Assembly: GCA_032372955.1 (NCBI GenBank)
Contig: GCA_032372955.1_4725.1
Source of the DNA: Escherichia coli
Lineage (GTDB): Bacteria > Pseudomonadota > Gammaproteobacteria > Enterobacterales > Enterobacteriaceae
DNA: 64,000 bases
Reading direction: 5' to 3' (one strand)
Shown here: piece after piece, positions 3,781 through 58,185 of the stretch
Numbering within the stretch: position 1 is the stretch's first letter
How the letters are laid out: each line of letters starts with the position of its first letter
Notes under the pieces: generated by a model
What the model was told of the DNA's origin: nothing
The model's database searches: none
Seen by the model: only the letters and a program-made list of their open reading frames with translations
Translations under genes and position numbers: made by a program

Positions 3781-5082
3781 ATGACACCTCGTGAATATTT
3801 CCTTTACGCGATGCGTGAAGGGCACTACCGATATCTTGAATGGATTAACGACGCATTTGCTTTTACGGAAGGTGGCGCTGAAAAATATCAGCCTAAATTA
3901 CGTCGTCAAGGTAACGTCGTTACGGTTACCATCGACGGTGAAGAACACCGATGGGAAACCGAGCCAACAAAACCCTTGTTGAATTTCTGGGATCCGTTGG
4001 AGCTTGCACCTGGCGATTTACCGTCGGTTAAGAACACAACCACCACAACCTTCGGTGAAGCGTTGTTCAATATGTACGTCCTTTATGACGCTTTCGGTAT
4101 TCAGATTGAATATCAGGCAGGACGGTTAACCAGCGGTACACTAGAATCACTGATTGCGCCGCGCGTAGCAGACGATCCCGAAGAGGGAATACCCGATCCT
4201 AACGAACGCCCTATTGGCCCACTGTACGCAAGCGAAGTGAAGAAATTCACCAACAATATCAGTGCATTAACCGCTATCAACCGTTTAATTGTCCCGTCAA
4301 TGAGTGATAAAGCGTTAACGGTCGATGATGATATTATTGCCTATCGTGATAAAGAGTTGGCGCGCTTACAAGAGGAAGGTAAGTTCACGCCTGAAGAACT
4401 GATCAAACTCGAAGCCACGCTAACCAAAATGGATAAGGAATCCTTTAAGGGCGATGAATCGGAAGGGTTCTATATTAACCCAGGCAAGAGTTTCGGTAAT
4501 ACTCGAAAGAAAACACACATCATGATGGGGGTTGAAGCCGACTTCGTTGACCCCGGTAAACGTAACGTTATCACACACAGCCTGGCTGAAGGGATGCGTG
4601 TCGACCATTGGGCGGAGTACAACAACAGTGCGCGTGCGGGTTCGTTCTCACGTGGTGCGTTAACCGCTTTAGCTGGACAGACGGCGAAAGAATCACAACG
4701 TGCAACACAGAACCTTAAAATCACGATGGACGACTGCGGTACCCACGAACATATTCTTTTCACGGTAAACCGCGACCACATCAAAGATAAGCTGCTTGTC
4801 GGCCGTTACATGATCGACGGCGCGGCGCTTAAACTTATTGATGCTGAATTACTTGCTTCTTTGGAAGGACAAACCATCAAGTTACGTGATCCTCAACGTT
4901 GTAAAGCAGGCCCATTGGAATACTGTGCTACCTGTTGCGGTAACGCGATGGCTCCAACCCCAGATGCGATCGGGGCAGAGATCACCGGCGTAAACAACGT
5001 TTTCATGAACACTATGATGAAAGCAATGCATAACGCCAGTGTATCGTTAGCGCCTTACGATCCTGAACTTTATATTAGTTAA
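3781..5082 (+). CDS. Multisubunit RNA polymerase beta-prime-like fragment (bridge helix, zinc-binding segment, start of trigger loop)
   Basis: NSARAGSFSRGALTALAGQ resembles the beta-prime bridge helix; KITMDDCGTHEHI matches the bacterial beta-prime VTEDDCGTHEGI block; a Cys cluster CKAGPLEYCATCCGN and DAIGAEITGVNNVFMNTMMKAMHN (cf. [25 protein letters not shown]) follow, then the ORF ends. Confidence 0.65.
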   Translation: MTPREYFLYAMREGHYRYLEWINDAFAFTEGGAEKYQPKLRRQGNVVTVTIDGEEHRWETEPTKPLLNFWDPLELAPGDLPSVKNTTTTTFGEALFNMYVLYDAFGIQIEYQAGRLTSGTLESLIAPRVADDPEEGIPDPNERPIGPLYASEVKKFTNNISALTAINRLIVPSMSDKALTVDDDIIAYRDKELARLQEEGKFTPEELIKLEATLTKMDKESFKGDESEGFYINPGKSFGNTRKKTHIMMGVEADFVDPGKRNVITHSLAEGMRVDHWAEYNNSARAGSFSRGALTALAGQTAKESQRATQNLKITMDDCGTHEHILFTVNRDHIKDKLLVGRYMIDGAALKLIDAELLASLEGQTIKLRDPQRCKAGPLEYCATCCGNAMAPTPDAIGAEITGVNNVFMNTMMKAMHNASVSLAPYDPELYIS

Positions 5083-5947: not shown

Positions 5948-6349
5948 ATGAACGAAACACTCGAACAACCCGCAATCTATCGTTGGACATCCGTTTGGAA
6001 TTATGTTTCTTTTAGCGTTGACACCGCAATGCAAGCCGTAATGGATTATAAGAATACCGGCAAAACGAACGAATGGTTAGTCATGCCCTGCGGCGACCTT
6101 ATTCGTACTGAAGGAATGTATTTCCCTAATGCCGGGAAAGACCGCCGTATCCAGGACAGGATGCGTACGACGATTCTGACGAATGGTGACGTCATGATCG
6201 AATGTTGGGCTGATTACCCCATTGATCGTGAACACCAGGATGAAATCTACCAGCGTTTACGCGATGAAATGGTTGCTGCAACGAAGCGGTATTCCTGTCG
6301 CGTTAAGCTGTATTGTTGGTTAAACGGCGTTGCCGTCCACGACATTTAA
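5948..6349 (+). CDS. Hypothetical protein (133 aa)
   Basis: ORF bracketed by two hairpin-TATGC elements. Confidence 0.5.
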   Translation: MNETLEQPAIYRWTSVWNYVSFSVDTAMQAVMDYKNTGKTNEWLVMPCGDLIRTEGMYFPNAGKDRRIQDRMRTTILTNGDVMIECWADYPIDREHQDEIYQRLRDEMVAATKRYSCRVKLYCWLNGVAVHDI

Positions 6350-6350
6350 T

Positions 6351-6407
6351 CTCTCCCTCTTCCCACCGTCCTCTTGAAGGATGGGGGGGGGGGAGGTTTC
6401 TATGCTG
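6351..6407 (+). terminator. GC-rich hairpin containing an 11-G homopolymer, followed by TATGCTG
   Basis: Starts immediately after the stop at 6349; G run at 6383..6393; TTTCTATGCTG at 6397..6407. Confidence 0.45.
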
Positions 6408-6428
6408 TTTTTATTTCGTGTTAACGCA

Positions 6429-6452
6429 GTTTATTTCACGACTACATTACCT
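6429..6452 (+). promoter_or_regulatory. Conserved promoter-like box GTTTATTTCACGACTACATTACCT (copy 1 of 3)
   Basis: Near-identical to 45327..45350 and related to 51812..51830; lies upstream of the small-gene block starting at 6569. Confidence 0.5.
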
Positions 6453-6473
6453 TCATGATGTCATGCATCATGA
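6453..6473. promoter_or_regulatory. Inverted repeat TCATGATG-tcatg-CATCATGA directly after the promoter-like box
   Basis: 8-bp arms are exact reverse complements with a 5-nt spacer; operator-like position. Confidence 0.35.
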
Positions 6474-6568
6474 ACGCGACGCGTAAGCGTTACCTTAGTG
6501 ATAAGAGCAAAATATCTTATCATCTATTTAAGACAATTGCAATCAATCCAATATAAAAGGATGTCGAG

Positions 6569-6994
6569 ATGTTACAAGCTATAACCGGGCATATTACCGC
6601 TAACTATATCACCGTTGTAGAATTTCTACGTAAACGAAAATACGAAAAACAAAACCCAATTCTTGAAGATGATACGTACAAAACAAAAATCTTTCGCGTC
6701 AATCGCAATACAACCGTCGCAACATCTGAAACAGGTTACACGGTTTATATCGATTGTGATGGATTAATCCCTAACGTTAAAGCGCGTGCGGCAACACTGT
6801 TAAAAGTCAAAGCGTTGCTAGATAAAAACAGGCCGCGCGTCATGGGTTTTGACGGCAAAGACATTGCTTTTGTTTATCACTTCGACAAACGTTATTCATT
6901 TTTCCAGTATTACAGCCGAGACGGTCTGTTAACCCATAACGGACCGGCGGTTGAGATCTACAGTCGTTATGCCTTATATGCATCACTGAATTAA
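6569..6994 (+). CDS. Hypothetical protein (141 aa)
   Basis: ORF with AAAGGATGTCGAG before the ATG. Confidence 0.5.
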   Translation: MLQAITGHITANYITVVEFLRKRKYEKQNPILEDDTYKTKIFRVNRNTTVATSETGYTVYIDCDGLIPNVKARAATLLKVKALLDKNRPRVMGFDGKDIAFVYHFDKRYSFFQYYSRDGLLTHNGPAVEIYSRYALYASLN

Positions 6995-7728: not shown

Positions 7729-8241
7729 GTGAATATGAATAACGAAGTAAATAAGAAAGTTGAAATGCGTGGTATTTGCGGACGTCCTGCAGAGACGTCT
7801 AAAATAAAGGATAGAGTGATCGCCCTTCTCAACTTAGTGCCTGACACCACGCTGGTTACATGTTGGGATATTATCGATACAACGATACTGCGATTCGAGG
7901 CGAATTTAAGAAACAACAGTTGCTGGAGCCCTGCTTTGTCGGCTGATGATAAAGTCTATCTCGTAAACGAGACACCTGCTAAAGATAATAATCGTATCGA
8001 TCGTTGGCGTTTTGCGTTGCACGACAACATTGTTAGTATCGACGTTATACTGAGTATAACAGGTGAGTCGTGTATTGCCGTCAATGAAATAGCGGCATAT
8101 GCCAAACTAAAATTAGCACAGTGTTTTCATACACGCGTCCGTGGATTCGATATGCCTGTTACATTAACAATCAACGGGCACGACGGTTCAGGGCTGTTCG
8201 AATTCCACTACGATCCTGACAATGAAAACACAGAAGAGTAA
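7729..8241 (+). CDS. Small protein, paralog family A (member 1)
   Basis: C-terminal region (MPVTLTINGHDGSGLFEFHYDPDNENTEE) parallels the next two genes (LEYEPDNGTE, MEYSPDEEG). Confidence 0.5.
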   Translation: MNMNNEVNKKVEMRGICGRPAETSKIKDRVIALLNLVPDTTLVTCWDIIDTTILRFEANLRNNSCWSPALSADDKVYLVNETPAKDNNRIDRWRFALHDNIVSIDVILSITGESCIAVNEIAAYAKLKLAQCFHTRVRGFDMPVTLTINGHDGSGLFEFHYDPDNENTEE

Positions 8242-8312
8242 TTAATCAACGATATCGTGTCCCTTGTTAGGTGGGGCACGTATCGGTTAAAAGGTGTCGA
8301 AGGTGTTAAAAA

Positions 8313-8774
8313 ATGACGACATGGGATTCTTACGGTGAGCAGCTGGTAGAATCGATAATTAAAAGCTTTGAAATACTCGAAGTAAGATTGCAGGAGGACG
8401 GGTGCTGGGAATTATTTAACGAGCCCGATTCCGACTCCGAACCTTACTTCTACAACCTATCCGTTCCAACAACACAACACGGCAATGCTACGATTGTAGA
8501 TATCACCGATATCAGAGTTTACAATAATCGTATCGCTGTAATAGCACGACTGCCTTTTAGCGTAAACGGGCTTGCCGCAAAGCAACTTCTAATGTATACA
8601 GCCAACGAGACATTTGGTAAATGCATAAAGTCGCACGGTATCTCGTTCCCCCTAGCGATCGATTATGAATTATCGGATGGCTGCAATCTCGTTACATTGG
8701 AGTATGAACCGGATAATGGAACAGAGATAACAGCACTCTCTGTTCCGATGAAGATGAAGAAAGAGGTAGAATAA
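8313..8774 (+). CDS. Small protein, paralog family A (member 2)
   Basis: Shares RLPFSVNGL / LEYEPDNG blocks with 8774..9232; stop overlaps the next start (TAATGG). Confidence 0.55.
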   Translation: MTTWDSYGEQLVESIIKSFEILEVRLQEDGCWELFNEPDSDSEPYFYNLSVPTTQHGNATIVDITDIRVYNNRIAVIARLPFSVNGLAAKQLLMYTANETFGKCIKSHGISFPLAIDYELSDGCNLVTLEYEPDNGTEITALSVPMKMKKEVE

Positions 8775-9232
8775 TGGCAACAATGTATTCATTCGAATCT
8801 AACGTCAACGAACTTTTCGACTCGCATAGAGACACTTACGTCACGCCTGTTGCTGAGACCGTCACTCGAAGTATCGAATCCCTCAAACAAAATCTACGTA
8901 AATCCGATATTTGGTCGATGGGACATAGCGATAATGACGGGACGTATTTTACCATCGTGGAACGTATCCCAACAATACCGTTTCATAGCGTTTATCTTGA
9001 CAGTACCGTTGTTTTCTATGTTTACAAGCATCGTATCCTTATCAACATACAACTACCATTCAGCGTCAGCGGGGTTGATGCTATACGTCGGTTGGCTGAT
9101 GTTGCTAATAACGCATTTACGAAATCAGCTATGCCGTGCGATTTCCCTATTACATTAACACTCAAGTTTTCCGATGGTTATGAATTCTACACGATGGAAT
9201 ACTCTCCAGACGAAGAAGGAGCTAAGGGATAA
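8774..9232 (+). CDS. Small protein, paralog family A (member 3)
   Basis: QLPFSVSGVDA and MEYSPDEEG blocks collinear with member 2; same length class (152 vs 153 aa). Confidence 0.55.
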   Translation: MATMYSFESNVNELFDSHRDTYVTPVAETVTRSIESLKQNLRKSDIWSMGHSDNDGTYFTIVERIPTIPFHSVYLDSTVVFYVYKHRILINIQLPFSVSGVDAIRRLADVANNAFTKSAMPCDFPITLTLKFSDGYEFYTMEYSPDEEGAKG

Positions 9233-9234
9233 TC

Positions 9235-9999
9235 ATGTCTATCAAAGATAAAGTTCAGCGATTAATCGAATTCAACCAACAGTGCCGTATTGATGAACTC
9301 GTCAATCTCGTAAACCATATATTCGATAAGTTTGAAGAATCGTTAAACGACGATATGTGGGATACCGATATCGTAAACGGTAAAGCGTATCTTCGGAAAA
9401 CCGTAGCGGATACTGATAGGGTACAATTTCTGGAATTCGGTTTAACTGACGATGGTGCCGTTATTCATGCGTTATTACCCCCATGTTTAAATAACGTTGA
9501 TGTATTAACATACAAACAACATCTATCCGAAATTTTCCAAACAAGAACCTCAAAGTACGAATGTCATATTCGTTTAATGATGTGTTTCCCCATGGAATCT
9601 AACGATAGCAAAACAATAACATTCGATACAAAAGAAATCGCAGATGAAATCTACGTCGATAGCGCAAGGGCTCGTGTCGATCGTATCGTCGATATGTTAG
9701 TTGATGTTGCACGTTCATTCAGTTCAACATCAGACTCTAAGAATGGTTACGTATGTGATTACGTGCATGAACCGTTACGGCGCATCGTTGCAACTCAGAC
9801 AGACAAAGGCATCAATGTTATTGGGGTAGTAAGTGATTTGTCTATGACCGACAACGACAATCTTGAGTTGAGAAGGATCTTCGAAACACGATTGCGAAAC
9901 TGCGCATCGAGATACAAAACATCTGTCACCTTCACCCTCTGTTTTCATCCCGCCATCATGTCGTGGGTAACAACTGTTGATAAAGAAAACAGTAAATAA
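9235..9999 (+). CDS. Hypothetical protein (254 aa)
   Basis: ORF tightly packed after 8774..9232, with AGGAGCTAAGGGATAATC before the ATG. Confidence 0.5.
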   Translation: MSIKDKVQRLIEFNQQCRIDELVNLVNHIFDKFEESLNDDMWDTDIVNGKAYLRKTVADTDRVQFLEFGLTDDGAVIHALLPPCLNNVDVLTYKQHLSEIFQTRTSKYECHIRLMMCFPMESNDSKTITFDTKEIADEIYVDSARARVDRIVDMLVDVARSFSSTSDSKNGYVCDYVHEPLRRIVATQTDKGINVIGVVSDLSMTDNDNLELRRIFETRLRNCASRYKTSVTFTLCFHPAIMSWVTTVDKENSK

Positions 10000-10035
10000 G
10001 TAATATTTCCAAATCGATAACATTAAGGATAAAAA

Positions 10036-10431
10036 ATGAGCATTGTAGAATCCATCGTTAAAGCTGTTAACGACAACATCGATCATCCGCGCATTTCTAC
10101 CATGATCGATATTATTAAACAAGAAAAAACACCTGGTTCATACATTCGTTTTACCCGTTTTGATAGCAGCGATTTACTTTTCACTGTGAAAACCGAGGTT
10201 CACGAGCAACGTATCATCGTAGAGGTCCTGGTAAAGGAGAACAAAGAACTAGACTGGCACTCTGTTCGTGGTGACAGAGACGCGAGAAATTTACTTAAAG
10301 AACATCTCTGTAAAGTGGAAGAGAAATACAATATCCCATTTAGCTTAGAGGTCAATCTTTTCCCAGCGTACCTGCTCTGGTACGTCAGTAGTGAGAAGCA
10401 TGTCGAAACGACAACTGACGTCAAAGAGTAA
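10036..10431 (+). CDS. Small protein, paralog family B (member 1)
   Basis: MSIVESIVKAVNDNIDH and EEKYNIPFSLEVN blocks shared with 10468..10866. Confidence 0.55.
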   Translation: MSIVESIVKAVNDNIDHPRISTMIDIIKQEKTPGSYIRFTRFDSSDLLFTVKTEVHEQRIIVEVLVKENKELDWHSVRGDRDARNLLKEHLCKVEEKYNIPFSLEVNLFPAYLLWYVSSEKHVETTTDVKE

Positions 10432-10467
10432 ATATACGTGATCAATAACAAACTAGGGATTAAAAAG

Positions 10468-10866
10468 ATGAACGTTGCTGATTCCGTCGCTAAAGCGGTC
10501 ATCGATAACATCGACCATTCGTATATTCCCGCCATGATCGATCTGGTTAAGCGAGAAAACGTATCTGACTCGTTGATGTGCTTTAGTCGTATGCTCGACC
10601 AAGCTATACTCGAGGCTGTAAACGTCAGCGTACATCGCCAACATGTTCTCTTCGAGGCGTATATAAAGAACGACCAACATCGATTAGGCCACCACGCGTT
10701 ACGACACGACGAGAACGCGCTGGAGCAGCTAACGAAATGTCTTTATGCGCTGGAAGAGAAATATAACATTCCTTGCTCTCTAGAGGTTAACCATTACCCA
10801 GCGTGTCGGATTTGGCGTATCGCTGGTAAGAAAGGCGCGACGCCTTCAGCTGATTGCGAAGCATAA
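10468..10866 (+). CDS. Small protein, paralog family B (member 2)
   Basis: MNVADSVAKAVIDNIDH and EEKYNIPCSLEVN blocks; ATG at 10468 aligns with the paralog N-terminus (track start 10438 is GTG). Confidence 0.55.
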   Translation: MNVADSVAKAVIDNIDHSYIPAMIDLVKRENVSDSLMCFSRMLDQAILEAVNVSVHRQHVLFEAYIKNDQHRLGHHALRHDENALEQLTKCLYALEEKYNIPCSLEVNHYPACRIWRIAGKKGATPSADCEA

Positions 10867-12052: not shown

Positions 12053-12690
12053 TAAACGAGGATCAACATACTTGATTCATTCGATGGTCCGCGCTTCCTC
12101 TTTTGGACGTGTTGCATCGAAATGCTCTAAGAGTTCAAACATCGATGGTGCTTTATAAACGATTCTACAGAAGTCTACAGCGTTCGTTTTACCTCCGGTA
12201 ATAAAGTTGATACCTAACTTCCTGAATTGATAGTCAGAGACGCCCTCAATGCGCGAGAGCTCACGAAAAACACACGCTCTGGATAGATTCAGCAGGATCT
12301 GCCCGTTGGGGTAGGACGAGGAGATGTCAAGCCATTGTCCACATAAGACGCAACTCTTATGCCGGTGTGTGCCACCCGCCTAAGCTTTCACTTAGGAGCA
12401 GACTATATCATGGAATGCTTTCGCACCCCTCCCGTGTTTGAGGACGCTTGTCCCTTACTCCGCGCGACCGGATAGTCGTTGAACGTTCTTCTTAGGTCTT
12501 ATTGCTGATGCATGCCCTTAGAAGCTTCGCTGCTGATTGCCCATTTATCGTTTCCTTACGAACATCCTTTCTGTTTTCTAACCTTGACGTTTTTCTTTTC
12601 AGAATCCGCTGTGGTCGAAAGGCTTTAGGGGGTTCCAGCAATTAACGGGAATCCGGTGGGGGCGTTATCCCCACCGGGACCTAAAATCGG
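12053..12690. other. ~640 bp tract with no ORF of 60 codons or more in any frame (candidate structured RNA, intron remnant or decayed gene)
   Basis: Lies between the terminator at 11992..12052 and the HNH gene stop at 12691; contains a TCTTATGCCGG motif and a hairpin at 12654..12678. Confidence 0.3.
12654..12678 (-). terminator. Hairpin just downstream of the HNH gene stop (no obvious U-tract)
   Basis: CCGGTGGGG-cgttat-CCCCACCGG, 9-bp perfect stem, 13 nt 3' of the minus-strand stop codon. Confidence 0.35.
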
Positions 12691-13797
12691 TTAAGCGTCG
12701 TTAAGACCGACAGGCATCGAACTGACATCTTCAAAATAGCGGAAGATGAATGGAGAACGACCTTCTGTGATCCTATTACGACAGTACTTCGTGATAGTCA
12801 CGTTAGAAACACCCGTCTCTCGTTGTGCGTGAGCAATTGATGCAAACACATAACGTTTACCGGTTTGTTTATCGATAGCCGCGATAGGGTGACCCATATC
12901 GTATTCCTGAAGACGACGATGTTGTCCGATCTGCCAATCTGGCCACGGAGTATCATCGTCAACTTCTTTGAAATACAGATTACAGGCTGGCATGAATTTC
13001 GTTTTACGCGTCATCCAATACCAAACACGTTTACGTTCCAAGCATGGATAAGCAGCACAACACGCGGCAATAGTCGGGAACACCCTAATCTCACCGGTAT
13101 TGTAATCCTTAACCTTAACAGGATGTAAGCCTTCCGTACGAAGACCATTATCAACTGCATGCTTATTGTTCTCAGAATAGGTTGTCCATTCAATGTTGCC
13201 AGGACGGTTATCCCATTTGATGCCGTTCTTGTGATTGATGATCTTTGTCATCACATCGGCACCGTATTCCAGGAACACGTAACCCATCGCTCGATGCTGG
13301 AACATTTGAGCTGTGAAACCGTTGTCATTAACAACTCGTTGAAAGAGATAACCAGCACGTTTATTTCGCGCCGGATCCCCTTTCGACCGTGTCCATGATT
13401 TCTTCTGCCCGGTTAAAAGACTAATAACTTCACCCTGTTCATTCATCACGTAATGCGTGAAGAACGGGACATAGTAATAGCCGGGATAACCTTTATGTTC
13501 CAACTTACCGTTCTTGAAACGATAAAGCAAATTCTCACGTTTGATGTTTTCTGGGTTCCCATCGATATACAACGAATGTGCTTCGTCTAAGAGATCTTCG
13601 TATATGTTAATAGCGTGCAGTTTACGCATTACCACAAGACCTGCGTCATACAGACCAGGACCACGGTACCAGTCAAGTTTGACGTACGATATTCCGTCTT
13701 CCACGATAAGCGGTAACGGCTTCATATCGAGGTCGAAGATACCTTCTTCGGAAACAACACATTCAGTAATCTTTGGATACTCATAACTACTTGACAT
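12691..13797 (-). CDS. HNH homing endonuclease
   Basis: HKNGIKWDNRPGNIEWTTYSENNKH is a canonical HNH block; the likely start is the second ATG at 13797 (MSSSYEYPK), 7 bp after AAGGAG; the track start is at 13824. Confidence 0.8.
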   Translation of the reverse strand: MSSSYEYPKITECVVSEEGIFDLDMKPLPLIVEDGISYVKLDWYRGPGLYDAGLVVMRKLHAINIYEDLLDEAHSLYIDGNPENIKRENLLYRFKNGKLEHKGYPGYYYVPFFTHYVMNEQGEVISLLTGQKKSWTRSKGDPARNKRAGYLFQRVVNDNGFTAQMFQHRAMGYVFLEYGADVMTKIINHKNGIKWDNRPGNIEWTTYSENNKHAVDNGLRTEGLHPVKVKDYNTGEIRVFPTIAACCAAYPCLERKRVWYWMTRKTKFMPACNLYFKEVDDDTPWPDWQIGQHRRLQEYDMGHPIAAIDKQTGKRYVFASIAHAQRETGVSNVTITKYCRNRITEGRSPFIFRYFEDVSSMPVGLNDA

Positions 13798-13864
13798 ATC
13801 AACTCCTTGCTCGCTTAGTATCATACTTATCGAGAAAGGAGGTAAAACTTAACCGATTTATTTC

Positions 13865-15364
13865 TTAATCCGCAACAAATAATCTAATATAACTTCTCAG
13901 GTTCGGCATATCCCAGAAGAGATGGATGCCGTTGTCCGCCATGAGATCGCATGGCAATGTGACGATATGTCCGGTTCGTGAGATAACCCACTTATCTTCT
14001 TCCTGGGTCATGTCGTCGGCGGTGCATCCCATGACTTCCCCACGGTTAAGATACACGAAGAAAAGTTTATCGCAGATACGTTTAGGGTTAGAACTGAAAT
14101 CTTTCAAATCCGACGCCGCCAAACGAATAGGGATGGTCATCGAATAGTCTTTTGTTTTCTGGTCCAACGCCTCGATGCCTTGGTTATCCCAAAGGTTATA
14201 TACACCGTAGTCGATTTGATGGTTCGTTTGCATCTCTTCGTGCCATGCAAGCTCCGTGAACCCTTCTGTACCAGGAATCGCTTTTAATTTCGTATGGCAT
14301 TTATTTCGCTCTAACACCGCATCGAGTGAATAACGTCCTTCATCCGGTCTTCCTAAACGAACGAACTTATAACCACACATCGCATCCATAACCTGATACG
14401 TGGCCATCGTATAAAACATCGGCCATGTTTGCTCAAGGGTAAGGTTGGTTTTACGACCTGAAGCAGATACCTTGTCGGTCTTCGGTGGTACCCAGCGAGC
14501 AATACGATACTTAGGTGGTACACGAGGATCGGAGAAAACATCCTCGGGACGATACCCTTCCTCGTTCAGTGCCTGGAGCATGCGCGGAATATCGAACGCA
14601 ATATTCCAGCCAAGGAGATAATCCGGCTGCCATTCGTGAACCTTCTGCATGCATTGGATGACCGCTTGCGCCGGGCTTTCTACGATTCGCACATCGTACT
14701 GATATTTTTCAAATGCGTGAGGATCTTCTTTGGTGTTCAGACGTTCGGCCAGGTAATATCGAATCTTCTCATGGGTTTTCTCAATCGCATTCGGAATATG
14801 ACCAACGAAGTCCTTGGTATAGCAAAGGATCGCATTGTATCCCATTGTAATAGACATACAGACGATCTTACCGTGTCCATGGACAACGTCGGTTTCGATA
14901 TCGAAACAGGCAATGGAAGCGGGTAATTTATCGACGTATTCCGGCCATTTTGTATTGTATTGGGTTTTTAAATAACAGCTGGCGCTAACGTCCGTGCCGT
15001 AGAGGTAGGGACTCCGTGCAAGTTGTTGTAAACGGGTGTTATCGTCAGCACGTCTTTTATAAAGCACCGAACTGATCTTTTCAACCAGTTCACTTTGACG
15101 GACATCGTAGCGTCGCACATGCGAGAGCTTCTCGCTTTCCTTTTTATATTTGTTCTTGCGTTTACTCTCTACCGTCACCCAAAACGGACGTTTGTAATTC
15201 TCGAAGAAGCGAAGGTTCGTCGCTTGCGTATTATCATCAAAGAACATGATCTCTTTTGCGATCATGAGGTCGTTCTTACTGCCATCGTTCGCTTCGTTAT
15301 AGCTGATGTGTCGACATTGAATACCGAGCAGTTTCTTCTTAGGTTTTCGTTCTTGTTCGCTCAT
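13865..15364 (-). CDS. DEDDy 3'-5' exonuclease domain protein (family-B DNA polymerase proofreading-like); no polymerase motifs in this ORF
   Basis: Exo I FDIET, Exo II WNIAFD, Exo III YNLWD (YxxxD) in canonical order and spacing; the ORF ends about 100 aa after Exo III with no DxxSLYPS or YGDTDS blocks. Confidence 0.65.
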   Translation of the reverse strand: MSEQERKPKKKLLGIQCRHISYNEANDGSKNDLMIAKEIMFFDDNTQATNLRFFENYKRPFWVTVESKRKNKYKKESEKLSHVRRYDVRQSELVEKISSVLYKRRADDNTRLQQLARSPYLYGTDVSASCYLKTQYNTKWPEYVDKLPASIACFDIETDVVHGHGKIVCMSITMGYNAILCYTKDFVGHIPNAIEKTHEKIRYYLAERLNTKEDPHAFEKYQYDVRIVESPAQAVIQCMQKVHEWQPDYLLGWNIAFDIPRMLQALNEEGYRPEDVFSDPRVPPKYRIARWVPPKTDKVSASGRKTNLTLEQTWPMFYTMATYQVMDAMCGYKFVRLGRPDEGRYSLDAVLERNKCHTKLKAIPGTEGFTELAWHEEMQTNHQIDYGVYNLWDNQGIEALDQKTKDYSMTIPIRLAASDLKDFSSNPKRICDKLFFVYLNRGEVMGCTADDMTQEEDKWVISRTGHIVTLPCDLMADNGIHLFWDMPNLRSYIRLFVAD

Positions 15365-20246: not shown

Positions 20247-23033
20247 ATGAACAAATACCTTAAAGCAGGGTTATCTTCCGCTGAAAATGGTTTATTGGTT
20301 CTTGAGTCATTGACAGAAAATATCAACGCTGTATCACATCCCACGATCCCTAGCAGTGTGGGTCTTGATGAGCTTCTGGCGTTGAAAGAAACGTTACATC
20401 GTGACAAACAGGTATCACGTCAACAACTAGCAATGCTGTCATATTCCCTTCCTGACGCAATGGAAGGTAAGCCGCTGGCATTATGGACCGAGTTACCTTC
20501 AACGACCGGTTTCAATGAAGCCTGCCGTGTTGTCGATAAAGCCATCGCGATTATCGGGGAACAGTTGAGAAACGCATCCGCCACGCAAGTAAAAGATCTT
20601 CTGGAGCAGGAGCTTACGCGTCTTGAAGAAAATGCGTCGTACGTTGACGATTTTACTGCATTGACTCAGGCGCATTCTGAACGTTTTTCTGCCATCCATG
20701 AAACATTGGGTGGTTTGATCGATCATCCAGACGTAAAAGAAGACCTCGCTATCGCTGTACAGAAATACGAAGGTAAGCTCGCACAGCTCTGGTCACCGAT
20801 TGTTGATCTGGTTGCGGTAACGCAAGCTCTGTCAGCGCTTTATGCCGTCGATCGCAAAATCCTTGAGCAAGCACTTGCATTACAGCCGTCTGGCAACGAT
20901 GGTGCGGATGAAGAGTACAACGTAGTTACTGCTGTTCCGTCGACCGATATCAATGTCCTTATGCCGTACTTCGACCAAGCGGGAAATCTCATCCCTACTG
21001 AATCGGTAGCGGCACCGAAAGAATGGGACGGTAAAACACTTCTCACCGTTTTAGGTACCGCGGTTTTCGCATCACGAATCATGCGTGACGTCGTGAACGA
21101 TTACCCAGAAACAGCGGCGTTGGTTAAACAACTGCTAGAACGCGTTGAATCTGCTCAAGCCGATGAAAATCTTGACAACATCGGTTATTTAGCGGTTATC
21201 GCACGTCTGCAAAATGCCCGTATCGTTTACCAGCGCATGTTAGTGCAATGTGTGCGTACCGTACTGACTTACGCTGAAGCTGTTGCTGAGCTTGTTATGT
21301 CGGTATCTGAGACCGCTACTGCTGTCCGTAGTGAAGAGCTTTGGGATAAAACTCAAGAAGAAATCGAAGCGGCTGACGGATACACACGTACCGATCTCGT
21401 GCAGGAAGGGTATGGCATCTATACCGCAGAAAGCGCGTGGGAAACGTTACGGCGGACGATGGAATACACCGTCAACATTCTAAAACGTTTGGTCGATTGG
21501 TTGGTTAAGAGCTGGCGTAATGGAAGTGCGAAAGCGGCGATCCAGCAGGCGGAGGCTAATAACAGTCAGCTTACGCGAGCTAAAGACGCTCTGCTTACCG
21601 AAGGCACGAAGAAACGCTTAGCATCGTTACATACCGTCGGTATTCAGACCATTGCGAAATATGCTGAAGCAGGAACGATCTGGTCGGGAGCGTTCAAAGG
21701 GGTTACCGACAATCTGGGTAACGTTGCGGCATTAATCAGCTCGGAAGTGAAAGAGCTATCGAACGGGCGTGAACTCGATCAGGATAAACTCGCTAAGATT
21801 CGTGAAGGTCTTGCTCTTGCATTCGAGAAAGGTAACTTCAATAAAGTTCTTCTTGGACACGATGGTATCACTATCGATAATCTCGCAAGTGAAATCCATG
21901 ACTACCGTGAAGAATTGAAGGATCAGTTCAAGGAATCCACGAACGAATCTATCGATGTGGATAAACTGATTCGATACAACGACGGTTGCCGTAAATTCCT
22001 GCAAGGACCAGTTACCGATGCACGTAACAAGGTCAGTGGACATGAGTTGGATAATCTGCTTACCATGTTGAACAGCATGATTCGTCAACAAGCCTCTTCG
22101 CCTGAGAATAAAGGTTTAGGGGCGTTGAAGAACGAAATCGTGAACGCACGTGACCTTGCTAAAGCCGCTGTGGATGTTCTCGGTATCGCACAATGGCTGG
22201 AAGTCCGGGCTAAGCGTTACATCAATGCTTTGAGTACAGTTGTCGATAAAGCAAACAGCGAAGCAGCAGCGGTTAGCGGATCGTTGAAACAGGAATCGTT
22301 CGATCTTAACGAAACTGTGCTCTCGTCCACCAATTACGATGTTTGTAGCGTCGCAGCCACGAGTCTCGCGGCAAACAGATTCCGCAACTCGCGTGACGAA
22401 CTTCGTCGTCATTATAACCAAGCCTTGGAGGCTGCGCTTCAAGTCTATAACCGGGCTGTTTATAACCGTGCTGTAATCGGACAACATCTGTTGGGTGTTA
22501 TGCCGCGGTTTACGGGTGTGTTCAGTAACTATCCGTGGACATTAGGCCTTGACCTTCAGGTGTCCAATCCTGTCGCGTTAAATGCGTTCTGTGAAAAGCT
22601 TTCGCGGTCTATCGAGCTCTATGGTGCAGGTACTGCCGACAGCATCACACAGGCGGTTGCTTTGTTAGATTCCACAGAACTCTGTTATGCGGTGGATCCG
22701 AACTATGAAGGCGAATCTGGTAACTCATCAGCTTTAGCAACGCATATGTTCGAATATCGACGTCTGGCAAAAGAAGCGTTGGAACCTCATAGCGACTTTA
22801 CCACTGAAGAACAACGGCGGGGATGGTACGCGACGTTCACGGACAGTTCACCATCATGGGAACCGGATAATACTCTCCAGGTGGTAACGGAAGATGTTGA
22901 TCCTTCGCTGATATGGGCATTCGCGTCTTTGTTCTGTGCTGCGCTGAATGCGTATATCGCATTGAAATACGGTACCGATCTCAAGGTGTACGGTTGGTTC
23001 AGCGAACAGCAGAACAGCAATAACGTAAGATAA
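20247..23033 (+). CDS. Large virion-associated protein (928 aa)
   Basis: Long ORF with ribosome-binding site; contains a W/K-rich amphipathic segment (VNILKRLVDWLVKSWRNG) like the neighbouring family. Confidence 0.5.
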   Translation: MNKYLKAGLSSAENGLLVLESLTENINAVSHPTIPSSVGLDELLALKETLHRDKQVSRQQLAMLSYSLPDAMEGKPLALWTELPSTTGFNEACRVVDKAIAIIGEQLRNASATQVKDLLEQELTRLEENASYVDDFTALTQAHSERFSAIHETLGGLIDHPDVKEDLAIAVQKYEGKLAQLWSPIVDLVAVTQALSALYAVDRKILEQALALQPSGNDGADEEYNVVTAVPSTDINVLMPYFDQAGNLIPTESVAAPKEWDGKTLLTVLGTAVFASRIMRDVVNDYPETAALVKQLLERVESAQADENLDNIGYLAVIARLQNARIVYQRMLVQCVRTVLTYAEAVAELVMSVSETATAVRSEELWDKTQEEIEAADGYTRTDLVQEGYGIYTAESAWETLRRTMEYTVNILKRLVDWLVKSWRNGSAKAAIQQAEANNSQLTRAKDALLTEGTKKRLASLHTVGIQTIAKYAEAGTIWSGAFKGVTDNLGNVAALISSEVKELSNGRELDQDKLAKIREGLALAFEKGNFNKVLLGHDGITIDNLASEIHDYREELKDQFKESTNESIDVDKLIRYNDGCRKFLQGPVTDARNKVSGHELDNLLTMLNSMIRQQASSPENKGLGALKNEIVNARDLAKAAVDVLGIAQWLEVRAKRYINALSTVVDKANSEAAAVSGSLKQESFDLNETVLSSTNYDVCSVAATSLAANRFRNSRDELRRHYNQALEAALQVYNRAVYNRAVIGQHLLGVMPRFTGVFSNYPWTLGLDLQVSNPVALNAFCEKLSRSIELYGAGTADSITQAVALLDSTELCYAVDPNYEGESGNSSALATHMFEYRRLAKEALEPHSDFTTEEQRRGWYATFTDSSPSWEPDNTLQVVTEDVDPSLIWAFASLFCAALNAYIALKYGTDLKVYGWFSEQQNSNNVR

Positions 23034-23043
23034 CAGCATATTC

Positions 23044-43893: not shown

Positions 43894-45261
43894 ATGGATT
43901 ACAAACAGACGCCGTTAGGACGGTATATCGGTACATTTGCGCAGGAAGCAGTTGCTGTTGCGTATAAAGTCACCGCGGAATTAATCACGCCGTCAATGAC
44001 GGTGTCTGTTCCTTTAGTGACTCAAGTCCACACGTATCGAGACTATGAACGTAACGCAGGAGATGAACTTTATATCTCTGTAAAGTTCCCGCCTGGCAGT
44101 TACGGAAAATACATCTTACCGTACCAACAACAACTTAAAATGCGTATCATCGTGCAGGCATACAGCCTGATGCGTGGACAACGCCAAACCGTAGACGATG
44201 CCGCACAAGCTTACGTCTACCGAGCGGTTTGTTTAACAACCGTAGACAGTCGTATGTCTGCTACCGACGAACGTACCGCAACAGATTCTTCGAAGAAAGA
44301 CTACGAACAAATGGTCGATCTTCAATTTCAACTGTTCGATCCTGTTCTTGAAAGCTTCATGCAATCAGAAACCGGTGAAAACTATACTGGGTCGAAAGTG
44401 TTGGATGTGTTGCGCCTTGAATTCAGCAAGATACTTTCTGCGGTTGAAGCCGACACCGGATTCAAAATGCAGGGCGTGGACATTGTTGCGCCGAATAACG
44501 ACAATCTGTTCAAGTTGCTTATTCTTCCGCACGGTACCAACGCAATGGATCTCGTAGACAAAATCCAGAACCAGGTCGGTATTTATTCAGCGGACGTAGG
44601 TTGTTATTATCAATCCCCGTATCTGTATATTTATCCTCTCTACGACGAAACCCGTTTCTCTGACGGTCGTCGCACGGCTATCTTTTACAACTACCCTGCC
44701 GATATGTTTCCAGGCATGGACAAGACCTGGATCAATCGTGACAAATACGTGGAAATTGCATGTACGAGAGGGGCGTCGGTAAGCGACATCAATAACGCGG
44801 CTTCGTTGTTAGGTAATGCGGGTGGGCGTTTTGTTTCGGCAAGTCAGATGAGTCAGGGAATGACATTATCAAAAGGAGGCGATACGATAATCAGTCGTAC
44901 TGTAAACGTTAGCGAGTACGTAACTGAAGAACGTAGCGATAACGTGAAGGTGGCGAAAGGGATGGGACGCGTAACCGATAACCGATGGCGTGAATTAAGT
45001 AATACTGCTGGATTACGCGGCAGGACAATGCAGTTGGTGTGGGAATACGCAAACATGGATATGTTGTATCCCGGCATGCCTGCTAAAGTTGTGTGGATGC
45101 AGGATAACAATCTCTGCGAAGCATACGGGGTTATCATGCGTACCGATTGTGCTGTTACGATGGCAGGTTCTTCTGTACGTGAACCACAGTGGACATGCCA
45201 TGGTACGGTCACGTTATGGCTTGCACCAGAAAAAGACAACACCGTTCGTCCAACCGTTTAA
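43894..45261 (+). CDS. Hypothetical protein (455 aa)
   Basis: Starts 3 bp after the upstream stop; last gene of a five-gene translationally coupled block. Confidence 0.55.
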   Translation: MDYKQTPLGRYIGTFAQEAVAVAYKVTAELITPSMTVSVPLVTQVHTYRDYERNAGDELYISVKFPPGSYGKYILPYQQQLKMRIIVQAYSLMRGQRQTVDDAAQAYVYRAVCLTTVDSRMSATDERTATDSSKKDYEQMVDLQFQLFDPVLESFMQSETGENYTGSKVLDVLRLEFSKILSAVEADTGFKMQGVDIVAPNNDNLFKLLILPHGTNAMDLVDKIQNQVGIYSADVGCYYQSPYLYIYPLYDETRFSDGRRTAIFYNYPADMFPGMDKTWINRDKYVEIACTRGASVSDINNAASLLGNAGGRFVSASQMSQGMTLSKGGDTIISRTVNVSEYVTEERSDNVKVAKGMGRVTDNRWRELSNTAGLRGRTMQLVWEYANMDMLYPGMPAKVVWMQDNNLCEAYGVIMRTDCAVTMAGSSVREPQWTCHGTVTLWLAPEKDNTVRPTV

Positions 45262-45265
45262 TATT

Positions 45266-45306
45266 CCCTCTCCCTTCCCTTACGGGTTGGGAGAGGGCTT
45301 ATGCTG
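45266..45306 (+). terminator. GC-rich hairpin followed by CTTATGCTG
   Basis: CCCTCTCCC-ttcccttacgggtt-GGGAGAGGG, then CTTATGCTG, 5 bp after the stop at 45261. Confidence 0.55.
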
Positions 45307-45326
45307 TCTTATTTCGCATTACTCCA

Positions 45327-45350
45327 GTTTATTTCGCGACTACATTACCT
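45327..45350 (+). promoter_or_regulatory. Conserved promoter-like box GTTTATTTCGCGACTACATTACCT (copy 2 of 3)
   Basis: 23 of 24 nt identical to 6429..6452; followed by AGGTGATAAG as in copy 3; ~200 bp upstream of 45559. Confidence 0.5.
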
Positions 45351-45558
45351 AGGTGATAAGAGCGGTTACTGTTGTCGCTGTAAATTTCTCTTAATAATCG
45401 AGGATACAGTCATGGCCTTATTAATACGCGACCCGTCAGCATACGAAAACACGCGTTATAACCATAACCAGTTCGGCAATAATTTCTAACAAAGAACGAT
45501 CAATCTATGCATTGATTCTTCTATCCGCAATCCACCTAACATAGAAAGGTAAAATACG

Positions 45559-46128
45559 ATGTTTAATCCAGAAATCATGATTCTTGATCCTTGGTACCTC
45601 AACAAACTTCCAGGAATCAAAATGCCAGGCGATCCTCACGCATTCGATTTGATGGTCGTTGCCGAAGTTACCAGCAATACGGTTAACACCATCGACGATG
45701 ATGAGGTTCCTGTTGAAGAGGTGTTCTCTGTTACGACGACATTACTGGAAAGTCGAGAGCTGACCGAAAACGGCAGCGCCGATGAAATCATTCCTATCGA
45801 TGGTGAGATGGAGATCATGTTAACACAGGTCGAGTTGCACCATCGTGTCGCACCAACAAAAGACACGCCTTATGACAATGAACCTGCAGAACAACCTGAT
45901 GAAAACGGTCGAGTGAAACTTGCTGACATCGACGACGATGCTCTTGAAGATATCGACGAAAACGAAGAAACGAACTTCTACCAAGCTGAAGCGAAAGAAG
46001 CGTTTGATAAAGCGGTTCAGCATGATCGACGTATCACCGAGAAGATGATCCAACAACAACTTATCGGTAAACGTCTTAAGCTCGAATTCGCAAGCGGGGT
46101 GCTTACTACCTGGTCACTCATCGTCTAA
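45559..46128 (+). CDS. Hypothetical acidic protein (189 aa)
   Basis: ORF with AAAGGTAAAATACG before the ATG. Confidence 0.5.
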   Translation: MFNPEIMILDPWYLNKLPGIKMPGDPHAFDLMVVAEVTSNTVNTIDDDEVPVEEVFSVTTTLLESRELTENGSADEIIPIDGEMEIMLTQVELHHRVAPTKDTPYDNEPAEQPDENGRVKLADIDDDALEDIDENEETNFYQAEAKEAFDKAVQHDRRITEKMIQQQLIGKRLKLEFASGVLTTWSLIV

Positions 46129-46197
46129 AACCGAAACAACGTTTTCATTTCCAATCACATACTCAACAATCTAAATCCAATTAAGAGGACAACATTT

Positions 46198-46599
46198 ATG
46201 TTTAATATTCTTAGTGTACCGCGTTCCCCTGTCAGTTCTTACTTCGGTATTATGACCAGTAAAGAACACAACGTGGAATATACTGTTATCGCTAAAGATC
46301 CATCACCGATCAACGTAACGTTTGCTGAAGGTACTACCGAACTCGTTCCGTTAAATGGTGAATTCAGTAAACCTGTTAACGGCGTCTACGAACTTATCAC
46401 TCGCGATCCGAATAACAACGCGACCTACCGTGTGGTGTGTGCGTTCAACAATAACAAATTGGTTATTGTTGCGGATAGCCGTGGGTTATCGTGGATGGCT
46501 GAGGAAGGCACACATCGTTACTACGAAGAATGCTTACGAACCGCAGGCATCTACGATCTGGTAATGGACGCCCGTGCTAAAAACGACCGGATGTTTTAA
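46198..46599 (+). CDS. Hypothetical protein (133 aa)
   Basis: ORF with AAGAGGACAACATTT before the ATG. Confidence 0.5.
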   Translation: MFNILSVPRSPVSSYFGIMTSKEHNVEYTVIAKDPSPINVTFAEGTTELVPLNGEFSKPVNGVYELITRDPNNNATYRVVCAFNNNKLVIVADSRGLSWMAEEGTHRYYEECLRTAGIYDLVMDARAKNDRMF

Positions 46600-46605
46600 A
46601 TTATC

Positions 46606-46932
46606 ATGATTACTCGAGAAATCATTTACGACGCTATTATCGAATGCCGCCATCGCGTCATGCGTGGAACGGTGTATAACTACCACTTAAACAACATTAT
46701 CAGTGAATGTACGGCGGTGATGACTAGCGCGCTGGGTAAACCTAGCGCTATCGCACTCTATCCAAACATCACTGAACAGGAGCAAATCAATATCGAAAAC
46801 CAACGTCGAGTGAATCGCCAATACGATGTAACAGCCATGCACGCATGGCTTATCGTTGCAGCGAAACTCAACACGCTTCTCACTGAGAACGGCTGGAAAT
46901 TTTCACCTAATGAATTCATGACAATAAGTTAA
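46606..46932 (+). CDS. Hypothetical protein (108 aa)
   Basis: ORF followed by a bidirectional terminator. Confidence 0.45.
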   Translation: MITREIIYDAIIECRHRVMRGTVYNYHLNNIISECTAVMTSALGKPSAIALYPNITEQEQINIENQRRVNRQYDVTAMHAWLIVAAKLNTLLTENGWKFSPNEFMTIS

Positions 46933-51649: not shown

Positions 51650-51747
51650 ACTACCGTAGCTGCTTCGTTGGACGATATTCTTGACGACAACGTTGCGGAT
51701 GGTTTCATTGCACCGGACATTCATCCGGCACCGTGATACATAAGTCA

Positions 51748-51789
51748 GCCTCCCTCAGCCCGTAAGGGTTGGGGGAGGTTTCTATGCCG
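51748..51789 (+). terminator. GC-rich hairpin followed by TTTCTATGCCG
   Basis: CCTCCC-tcagcccgtaagggttg-GGGAGG, then TTTCTATGCCG; ~100 bp after the stop at 51649. Confidence 0.5.
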
Positions 51790-51811
51790 TTTACGTTGTG
51801 AATAGAAAAAA

Positions 51812-51830
51812 TTTGACGCTTACATTACCT
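51812..51830 (+). promoter_or_regulatory. Conserved promoter-like box TTTGACGCTTACATTACCT (copy 3 of 3)
   Basis: Shares the ACATTACCT core and the downstream AGGTGACAGA with copies 1 and 2; ~155 bp upstream of the start at 51986. Confidence 0.45.
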
Positions 51831-51985
51831 AGGTGACAGACGCCTGCGATGAATAAGGCATAGACAACACGTAAGGTCGTTCTCGCGCTAGGAACGATGC
51901 TGAAACCGTCGGCTGTCGGCTCGATAAGAACAAGAAAAGGGAAATGCGTTATGCGTGATAGTTTTCAATCAGATGGAGGTTGACG

Positions 51986-53422: not shown

Positions 53423-53461
53423 CTTTAATCTGCTTAAGCAACTTTCTGAAAGGAGTGTGTG

Positions 53462-55258: not shown

Positions 55259-55292
55259 CACATAACCGAATAAATAAAAAGGATCGTAAGAA

Positions 55293-57851: not shown

Positions 57852-57912
57852 TTAACTTATCGTCCGACGGCGGGTATTGTATTTGCAATACCCTAGTTGA
57901 TAAGGAAACCGT

Positions 57913-58185
57913 ATGAGTCAATATAAACTCATTACCGTCTCTGTGGATGCAAAGGACTTACGCGAAATTACGTTAGCAGCCAACGCAGTTCAACAGGACA
58001 GTGAACTGACGGCATATGAACGTTACCAGCTTTTCCTCTCGATAAGCGACACGGTAGCACGTATGCAACAGAAGTACCAGGTTCAGCTAACCGTAATCGA
58101 CAAAGGCGCTGTGATCCCACCACACCCTAGTTGGCGCGTACTGAGAAGCAAACTCACCACAATTGAATCGTGGTTAACCTCGTAA
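57913..58185 (+). CDS. Hypothetical small protein (90 aa)
   Basis: ORF with AAGGAAACCGT before the ATG; followed by a bidirectional terminator. Confidence 0.45.
   Translation: MSQYKLITVSVDAKDLREITLAANAVQQDSELTAYERYQLFLSISDTVARMQQKYQVQLTVIDKGAVIPPHPSWRVLRSKLTTIESWLTS

Follow-up and report, generated by a model that had tools for sequence, protein, structure and literature searches.

What is the function of a short sequence box that recurs, with conserved flanks, ahead of three different genes in one stretch of phage DNA? The 64,000-nucleotide stretch that we analyzed (hereafter, the window) contains TACATTACCT exactly at positions 6443–6452, 45341–45350 and 51821–51830 (sites 1, 2 and 3), in each case on the + strand and between genes. 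The first-pass annotation had interpreted these as promoter-like boxes with a shared regulatory function, an idea supported by their intergenic confinement, their co-orientation with the genes downstream, and their match to the early promoters of phiKZ-like phages. We conclude that the boxes are real and in all likelihood functional, and that they belong to a known promoter class. Each is very probably the core of an early promoter read by the virion RNA polymerase (vRNAP) of a Goslar-like chimallivirus. The case is built on the motif itself, its genome-wide confinement to correctly oriented intergenic sites, its match to the promoters of relatives, and the identity of the genes downstream, each of which we observed directly.

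A Goslar-like jumbo phage genome

A 3-kb piece around site 2 was 96.5% identical to Escherichia phage vB_EcoM_Goslar (237,307 bp), and no other organism in the phage collection matched this piece. The entire window aligned, in reverse orientation, to Goslar positions 93,137 to 31,087, with a few segments replaced. Segments 8219–8773, 9218–10858, 12314–13865 and 20545–21404 of the window lacked a megablast-level match in Goslar, and the remaining window was 88–97% identical; 8219–8773 and 9218–10858 fall within the block of small ORFs 3′ of promoter 1, in what looks like a variable cassette region.

Goslar is a jumbo phage of the family Chimalliviridae that forms a nucleus, and it serves as the main E. 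coli model for the biology of the phage nucleus. Nucleus-forming phages carry a multisubunit vRNAP in the virion, which transcribes their early genes, and a second polymerase (nvRNAP), made later, transcribes later genes. The Goslar vRNAP has been reported to be active in early transcription inside the EPI vesicle, the early-infection vesicle that encloses the injected genome. The genome does encode a multisubunit RNA polymerase: RefSeq annotation names seven subunit genes, to which a PHIKZ123 homolog described below adds an eighth.

Two further features of the window can be noted here. The ORF at 3781–5082 (+), a homolog of Goslar_00078, encodes an RNA polymerase β′-like fragment that matched cellular β′ weakly (E = 0.003, residues 263–329) and matched none of the solved phiKZ nvRNAP chains; its product may be a virion-polymerase subunit. 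A full-length group I intron (Rfam RF00028, 70 bits) lies at 12379–12704 (−), where it adjoins an HNH/NUMOD-type ORF (12691–13824, −) and a DNA polymerase fragment (13865–15364, −). Two other introns are annotated in Goslar, and the Goslar stretch equivalent to the window intron (82470–83288) carries no annotation.

Three boxes without a sigma-70 pair

The particulars given for the three copies by the first-pass annotation were accurate. Copies 1 and 2 (GTTTATTTCACGACTACATTACCT at 6429–6452 and GTTTATTTCGCGACTACATTACCT at 45327–45350) are identical at 23 of 24 positions, and can be written together as GTTTATTTC(A/G)CGACTACATTACCT; copy 3 is TTTGACGCTTACATTACCT at 51812–51830. A hairpin followed by TATGC precedes each of them, with TATGC starting at 6401, 45300 and 51783, which is 22–24 bp ahead of the conserved stretch as first described and places the element ~35 bp from the 10-mer. 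The next start codons, at 6569, 45559 and 51986, are about 115–210 bp downstream of the boxes.

The degree to which the motif stands out depended on how it was written. With one mismatch allowed, ACATTACCT matched the window 18 times, barely above the background expectation of 11.6. TAYATTACYT matched exactly three times, at the three boxes, compared to an expectation of 0.48, and three matches were reached in one of 100 shuffles.

Because TACATT and TATATT agree with TATAAT at four to five of six positions, and because TTGACG occurs near site 3, TAYATT might be regarded as the −10 hexamer of a host sigma-70 promoter. However, a consensus scan found no −35/−10 pair with 16–18-bp spacing at any of the three boxes, in line with the earlier judgment that the box does not resemble such a pair, and the TTGACG of site 3 is only 2 bp from TACATT. 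Moreover, conservation extends 3′ of the hexamer, through ACYT and then TGA, which sigma-70 does not require, and phiKZ-like infection has been reported to be independent of the host RNAP. We regard a sigma-70 promoter as very improbable at these sites.

Promoters of SP6-type single-subunit RNA polymerases read ATTTAGGTGACACTATAG, to which site 3, and site 3 only, has a 9-nt match (TAGGTGACA). We rejected an SP6-like promoter because the conserved positions of the box lie upstream of this match and because no single-subunit RNAP is annotated in Goslar.

A genome-wide census of the box

The genome-wide search for further copies that the first-pass annotation had recommended was made in the Goslar genome, which we assembled whole and entered with its 247 annotated CDSs, all of which passed a start/stop check. 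TAYATTACYT occurs 13 times in this genome, compared to 2.8 times expected from shuffled genomes, and the looser pattern TA.ATTAC[CT]T also occurs 13 times, with all 13 fitting the stricter form. Non-coding DNA, which makes up 7.06% of the genome, contains 12 of the 13 copies (binomial P = 1.9e-13 for at least 12 of 13), and the remaining copy is inside Goslar_00047, a doubtful 62-aa ORF whose initiating ATG is part of a terminator tail. Each of the 13 boxes shares the strand of the next gene, whose start codon is 39–219 bp from the beginning of the box.

Iterating a weight matrix under a loose cut-off pulled in noise from coding DNA; in its place we used a strict regular expression, and the 13 Goslar sites that it found served to build a 44-nt matrix. 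On the 44-nt matrix the 13 Goslar sites scored 29–53 bits, one further site (TACATAACCT, which precedes the RNA polymerase subunit gene Goslar_00165 by 103 bp) scored 22 bits, and the next best scored 14.9. In the window, the three reported sites were the only ones to exceed 6 bits, scoring 44–49 bits. A fourth ACATTACCT, at 35496, is intragenic, is missing the leading T and stays under 6 bits, and TATATAACCT at 14202 is within the DNA polymerase gene and scores low; we dismissed both as chance matches.

Sites 1, 2 and 3 are orthologous to the Goslar sites at 86705, 49732 and 43266, respectively, and the orthologous sites have been kept in two further Goslar-like IMG/VR genomes, in which the flanks have diverged. 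The 22-nt pattern is also matched by two other IMG/VR contigs, 3300009285_007817 and 3300025073_000817, but with no flanks in common, and these were set aside as chance; by a rough estimate, a few chance matches to this pattern are expected in a collection as large as IMG/VR.

Likeness to the early promoters of phiKZ-type phages

For every RNAP-encoding jumbo phage, early genes have been described to carry a conserved motif, AT-rich and ~10 nt long, whose centre is near −10 (PMC7598289). In AR9 the early promoters read AAATATATATTAT-(6N)-G(+1), with starts in phiKZ and phiR1-37 likewise falling 6 nt after the element (PMC5312081), and in phiKZ an extended −10 box is accompanied by a T-rich motif upstream of −19 (PMC8244752). 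Reading phiKZ promoters directly from a 41-kb stretch of phiKZ DNA, we found five intergenic occurrences of TATATTAC; a G follows 6 nt later in all five, and an A-tract lies upstream in three. The gene for phiKZ chimallin, gp54, which has a mapped early start, is preceded at 80 bp by the promoter GAAAAAAATTTGAGATTTATATTACtaaattG, and the promoter of Goslar chmA (chimallin) reads GAAAAAAATTTCAGGGTTATATTACctaggtG, which can be compared with GAAAAAATTTGACGCTTACATTACctaggtG at site 3 of the window. The same TATATTAC-(N6)-G stands before the chimallin gene in Erwinia phage RAY, Klebsiella phage Eowyn and Ralstonia phage RSL2, and TATATCAC-(N6)-G is found upstream of that of PhiPA3.

The chimallins of the compared phages are only ~22–25% identical to that of Goslar. 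With TATATTAC-(N6)-G upstream of chimallin in phages this distant, the box would thus be the form that an early promoter core common to the whole family takes in the Goslar clade. That this core has been kept in chimalliviruses of Escherichia, Klebsiella, Erwinia, Ralstonia and Pseudomonas, despite chimallin identities of ~23%, argues for an old, conserved reading of promoters by the virion polymerase, and its conservation over such distances goes slightly beyond what is in print. In the literature that we covered, which was incomplete, we found no promoter consensus for Goslar-like phages.

The Goslar-group sites share with the early promoters of phiKZ, 201phi2-1, AR9 and phiR1-37 a highly conserved AT-rich element near −10, which is repeated, as TAYATTACYT, 13 times in Goslar and three times in the window and whose core is the TATATTAC of phiKZ, RAY, Eowyn and RSL2, and a G 6 nt later. 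They also share an A/T-rich upstream element and a position before chimallin, nvRNAP subunit genes and blocks of small ORFs. They differ from those of phiKZ in that position 3 is C or T (the three window copies being TACATTAC), the core is always followed by YT, and TGA marks the predicted start. In addition, 8 of the 13 Goslar copies have TTAAY...TTTCACGRC in place of the A-tract, an element of which we saw none in the phiKZ stretch examined, and Goslar has 13–14 copies per genome, whereas 28–32 early promoters have been reported for phiKZ.

Layout of the proposed promoter unit and predicted starts

Aligning the sites revealed a unit of ~44 bp in which an upstream A-tract or TTTCACGRC is followed by TAYATTACYT and then by nnnTGA. 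The box that was first described is thus real but too short, as it captures only part of the functional unit. Promoter 1 (6417–6460, +; 48.7 bits), of the TTTCACGRC type, contains the box at 6443–6452 and lies upstream of the Goslar_00075 orthologue. Promoter 2 (45315–45358, +; 48.2 bits) is of the same type, with the element here reading TTTCGCGAC, contains the box at 45341–45350, and is conserved in Goslar and in IMG/VR genome 3300011560. Promoter 3 (51795–51838, +; 44.1 bits), with the box at 51821–51830, is of the A-tract type (GAAAAAATTTGACGCT-TACATTACCT-AGGTG); its sequence is identical in the window and Goslar, and its layout is almost the same as that of the chimallin promoters of Goslar and phiKZ.

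Judged by sequence, a G is found 6 nt after TAYATTAC at all 13 Goslar sites, all three window sites and all six chimallin promoters compared. In Goslar, TG occupies the predicted −1/+1 (positions 6–7 after TAYATTAC) at 13 of 13 sites, and TGA is present at 12 of 13. Because of the 6-nt rule known from related phages, transcription is predicted to start at G 6457, G 45355 and G 51835, 5 nt after the respective 10-mers; for Goslar chmA the predicted position is 172964. The AGGTGA(T/C)A that had been seen after copies 2 and 3 is indeed there (AGGTGATA and AGGTGACA), but nnnTGA is conserved after the copies, and the octamer is therefore no separate element, comprising instead the spacer and the conserved TGA with its predicted +1 G. 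These assignments provide a map of early transcription units for Goslar-like phages, with three in the window and 13–14 per genome, and starts predicted to the nucleotide.

Palindromes at some of the sites (ACCTAGGT at sites 2 and 3, and ACTTAAGT at the Goslar copy at 2567), together with an inverted repeat over the start region of some copies, might indicate that the box is not a promoter but the binding site of a phage regulator or an element of an RNA leader. Such palindromes are confined to a minority of copies, however, and the window leaders downstream of the predicted starts fold no better than shuffled sequences (z −0.07 to −1.3), with no Rfam family found in the three regions. Furthermore, a promoter accounts for the strict orientation, for the position 39–219 bp before the gene and for the match to mapped phiKZ-type promoters, which leaves an operator or leader element with little to recommend it.

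Putative terminators upstream of the boxes

The hairpin-TATGC elements precede each window copy, as the first-pass annotation had stated, but they belong to putative terminators of the upstream genes rather than to the promoters. Long-read RNA sequencing of phiKZ has defined a terminator motif, BCCYCCCCHWWDGGGRRGGBYTTATKYYGT (Putzeys et al. 2024, PMC10914365), the 3′ half of which (GGGRRGGBYTTATKYYGT) is matched in the window at 6391, 45290 and 51773, as in GGAGAGGGCTTATGCTGT. The putative terminator of the gene at 5948–6349 (6352–6408, +) consists of a hairpin at 6352–6396 (−30.8 kcal/mol, z −2.7) and the tail TTTCTATGCTGT (TATGCTGT at 6401–6408), with two mismatches to this half-motif. That of the structural gene at 43894–45261 (45266–45307, +) has a hairpin at 45266–45297 (−25.8 kcal/mol, z −5.6), the tail CTTATGCTGT and one mismatch, and that following the major head protein gene at 49427–51649 (51747–51790, +) has a hairpin at 51747–51780 (−29.7 kcal/mol, z −5.7), the tail TTTCTATGCCGT and two mismatches. 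A scan for classical T-run terminators called none at the three sites, missing these hairpins because they have no T-run.

Throughout Goslar, a hairpin of −15 kcal/mol or stronger lies just upstream of 21 of the 25 intergenic copies of TATGYYGT, compared to 2 of 33 intragenic copies. In most cases the copy with a hairpin follows a co-oriented gene, 32–56 nt past its stop codon; convergent gene ends account for at least six copies, and the right genome end for one. From their sequence and placement, the hairpin-TATGYYGT elements are evidently phiKZ-type terminators, with which they share a CCYCCC/GGGRGG stem-loop followed by (T)TATGYYGT at 30–60 nt after stop codons. The Goslar-group elements differ from those of phiKZ in having longer stems (13–18 pairs) that are often imperfect, and in that the tail TCTATG is commoner than TTTATG.

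The TATG of the tail also occurs in the late promoters of phiKZ (T(−3)ATG(+1), read by the nvRNAP). We regard a late promoter of this style in the tail as no more than a remote possibility, because copies at convergent gene ends have no gene to drive; such copies instead assign the tail to the terminator. The tail motif is also longer than that of the late promoters (TATGYYGT) and is tied to a hairpin, such that the resemblance is only that. A close upstream terminator is present at only three of the 13 Goslar promoters, those at 43266, 49732 and 86705. This terminator-then-promoter arrangement is known in phiKZ-like phages, and had not previously been recorded for the Goslar group. The two elements provide defined promoter and terminator parts for engineering Goslar-like phages.

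Long hairpins of nearly identical sequence (ACCCTCCTCCAACCCGTAAGGGAAGGAGGAGGG) are found at convergent gene ends, at position 23040 (−) of the window and at 27780, 72024, 93479 and 134620 of Goslar. They have CATAA at one flank and TATGCTGT at the opposite one, such that TTATG or TATG follows on either strand, and look like bidirectional terminators. Both ends of the Goslar record (1–45 and 237253–237307) carry an identical hairpin-TATGCCGT-CAAGCAAAAAAAAAA, which looks like either a short terminal repeat or an assembly overlap.

Genes downstream of the boxes

Promoter 1 is followed by a gene of 141 aa (6569–6994, +), a homolog of Goslar_00075 that heads a run of small + strand ORFs extending to ~11990 and whose product had no PHROG or Pfam match. 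Promoter 2 is followed by three small genes (45559–46932, +; 189, 133 and 108 aa), homologs of Goslar_00046 to Goslar_00044, for the products of which no family match was found. Small ORFs of this sort would be typical of early genes by analogy with AR9, in which 76% of early gene products have no predicted function (PMC5312081).

Promoter 3 precedes an operon of ORFs of 478, 599, 852 and 90 aa (51986–58185, +). A sequence search of the PDB identified the product of the second ORF (53459–55258, +) as a homolog of PHIKZ123, a subunit of the phiKZ nvRNAP (phmmer against PDB 7OGP chain E, E = 5.8e-41, residues 1–560), and the same product matches phrog_2943, 'polymerase' (E = 7e-120). Pairwise BLASTP found no similarity between the proteins of this operon and phiKZ gp68 or gp69. 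The Goslar counterpart of the second ORF, Goslar_00039, is annotated in GenBank only as a hypothetical protein. Other copies of the box in Goslar, likewise intergenic and co-oriented, precede chimallin and then an nvRNAP β′ gene, a long block of small ORFs and nucleotide-metabolism genes (genes 159 down to ~94), and other runs of small ORFs. Because the genes of the second polymerase must be read by the first, nvRNAP genes downstream of early promoters are the expected pattern.

Might the box instead belong to another temporal class, and be read by the nvRNAP as a middle or late promoter? Site 3 is surrounded by structural genes and immediately follows that of the major head protein, which is an unusual neighbourhood for an early promoter and counts against our reading, and some nvRNAP subunit genes of 201phi2-1 have reported middle or late promoters. 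However, phiKZ late promoters consist only of TATG at the start and its middle promoters of TACT at −22 after an A-repeat (PMC7598289, PMC8244752), neither of which is like the box, whereas the phiKZ early element matches it and is at the same distance from the G. The box also precedes chimallin and nvRNAP genes, which are needed before any nvRNAP exists. We consider a middle or late promoter improbable, and return to the early promoter.

Our analysis corrects the annotation in two respects, with a probably spurious ORF across promoter 2 and an unnamed nvRNAP subunit gene after promoter 3. The former, the window equivalent of Goslar_00047 (45301–45489), is a 62-aa ORF that runs from the ATG in the terminator tail TATGCTGT across promoter 2, and is probably a mis-call. 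In the same frame, a possible 25-aa ORF at 45412–45489, within the predicted 204-nt leader, has GAGGA 7 nt before its ATG.

A model for early transcription at the three sites

In our model, transcription arriving from the upstream gene would be stopped by the phiKZ-type hairpin-TTATGYYGT terminator. The vRNAP would then read the ~44-bp unit, with the upstream element (GAAAAAAWTT or TTAAY...TTTCACGRC) centred ~20–35 bp before the start. TAYATTAC would occupy about −14 to −7, with YT directly after it, and the transcript would begin 6 nt after TAYATTAC at the G of TGA. The new transcript would cover a block of early genes, which encodes small proteins at sites 1 and 2 and comprises the operon with the nvRNAP subunit gene at site 3. 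Of the elements of this model, we infer the exact start site and the early timing as well as the enzyme, the vRNAP being assigned by analogy to related phages.

In the literature that we covered, which was partial, we found no published 5′-end map for any Goslar-like phage. The one remark in print on where Goslar chmA transcription starts, which derives from RNA-seq coverage and is imprecise at the 5′ end, has the sequence beginning 91 nt before the ATG and 11 nt upstream of the box; our model predicts a start 14 nt downstream of the first base of the box, with which this remark is compatible without lending it precise support. Some tension with early promoters arises from their number, as 13–14 sites are few for the 175 of 249 Goslar genes reported to be on at 5 minutes. 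Either read-through and long operons account for this difference, or there are further early promoters that the motif misses.

Two upstream flavours and exchange between promoters

The two upstream elements divide the promoters into two flavours. At four Goslar sites, 43266 (equivalent to window site 3), 172978, 201944 and 226695, GAAAAAAWTT lies ~7 nt before the box, forming the A/T-rich element at about −20 to −30 that is also seen in phiKZ. At 8 of the 13 Goslar copies (2567, 15067, 49732, 86705, 113797, 142800, 160791 and 166069) the A-tract is replaced by TTAAY...TTTCACGRC abutting the box. This second flavour covers window sites 1 and 2 (the equivalents of Goslar 86705 and 49732), and these sites and the six other Goslar copies have TTTATTTC or TTAAY in addition to TTTCACGRC.

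The flavours sort with gene sets, which is a second respect in which the results go slightly beyond print: the A-tract type precedes the chimallin and nvRNAP operons, and the TTAAY...TTTCACGRC type precedes blocks of small ORFs. It is conceivable, although we think it rather unlikely, that early promoters of the Goslar group come in two functionally distinct kinds built on one shared core. If so, the A-tract kind may be the pan-family, phiKZ-like one and the TTAAY...TTTCACGRC kind a clade-specific one serving small accessory ORFs. The two could then differ in timing, strength or a co-injected specificity factor, which would mean that vRNAP transcription is divided into an immediate-early and a delayed-early part.

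An alignment of the window, Goslar and IMG/VR genome 3300011560 revealed a 43-bp segment of the window (6453–6495, +) that is absent from Goslar. The segment separates the box from a second TTACCT, with the nnnTGA start region retained, and has almost the same sequence as the leader that follows another early promoter in 3300011560. This raises the question of whether shared ancestry is all that the boxes reflect, with functionless intergenic cassettes having been copied by recombination. Sites 1 and 2 share the 24-mer and most of the ~50-nt spacer from TATGCTGT to the box, and the indel at site 1 is flanked by TTACCT repeats and has a sequence that recurs at another promoter. Paralogy explains this extra similarity of sites 1 and 2, but not site 3 or the occurrence of the core in distant phages: what site 3 and most Goslar copies have in common is the motif positions only, without the flanks, and the same core is found in phages with chimallins only ~23% identical. 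Recombination of promoters is also compatible with their function, and does not replace it as an explanation. We find it hard to credit that the boxes are functionless copies, and retain the early promoter as the preferred reading.

The region directly 3′ of promoter 1 is a hot spot for indels. The 43 bp of the window are bounded there by the TTACCT repeats, and a relative (L023; IMGVR_UViG_3300011560_000001, ~4382–4437) carries a different insert of ~56 bp at the same place, with a predicted fold of −21 kcal/mol (z −6.2). The indels after promoter 1 suggest that recombination may occur between early promoters and their leaders.
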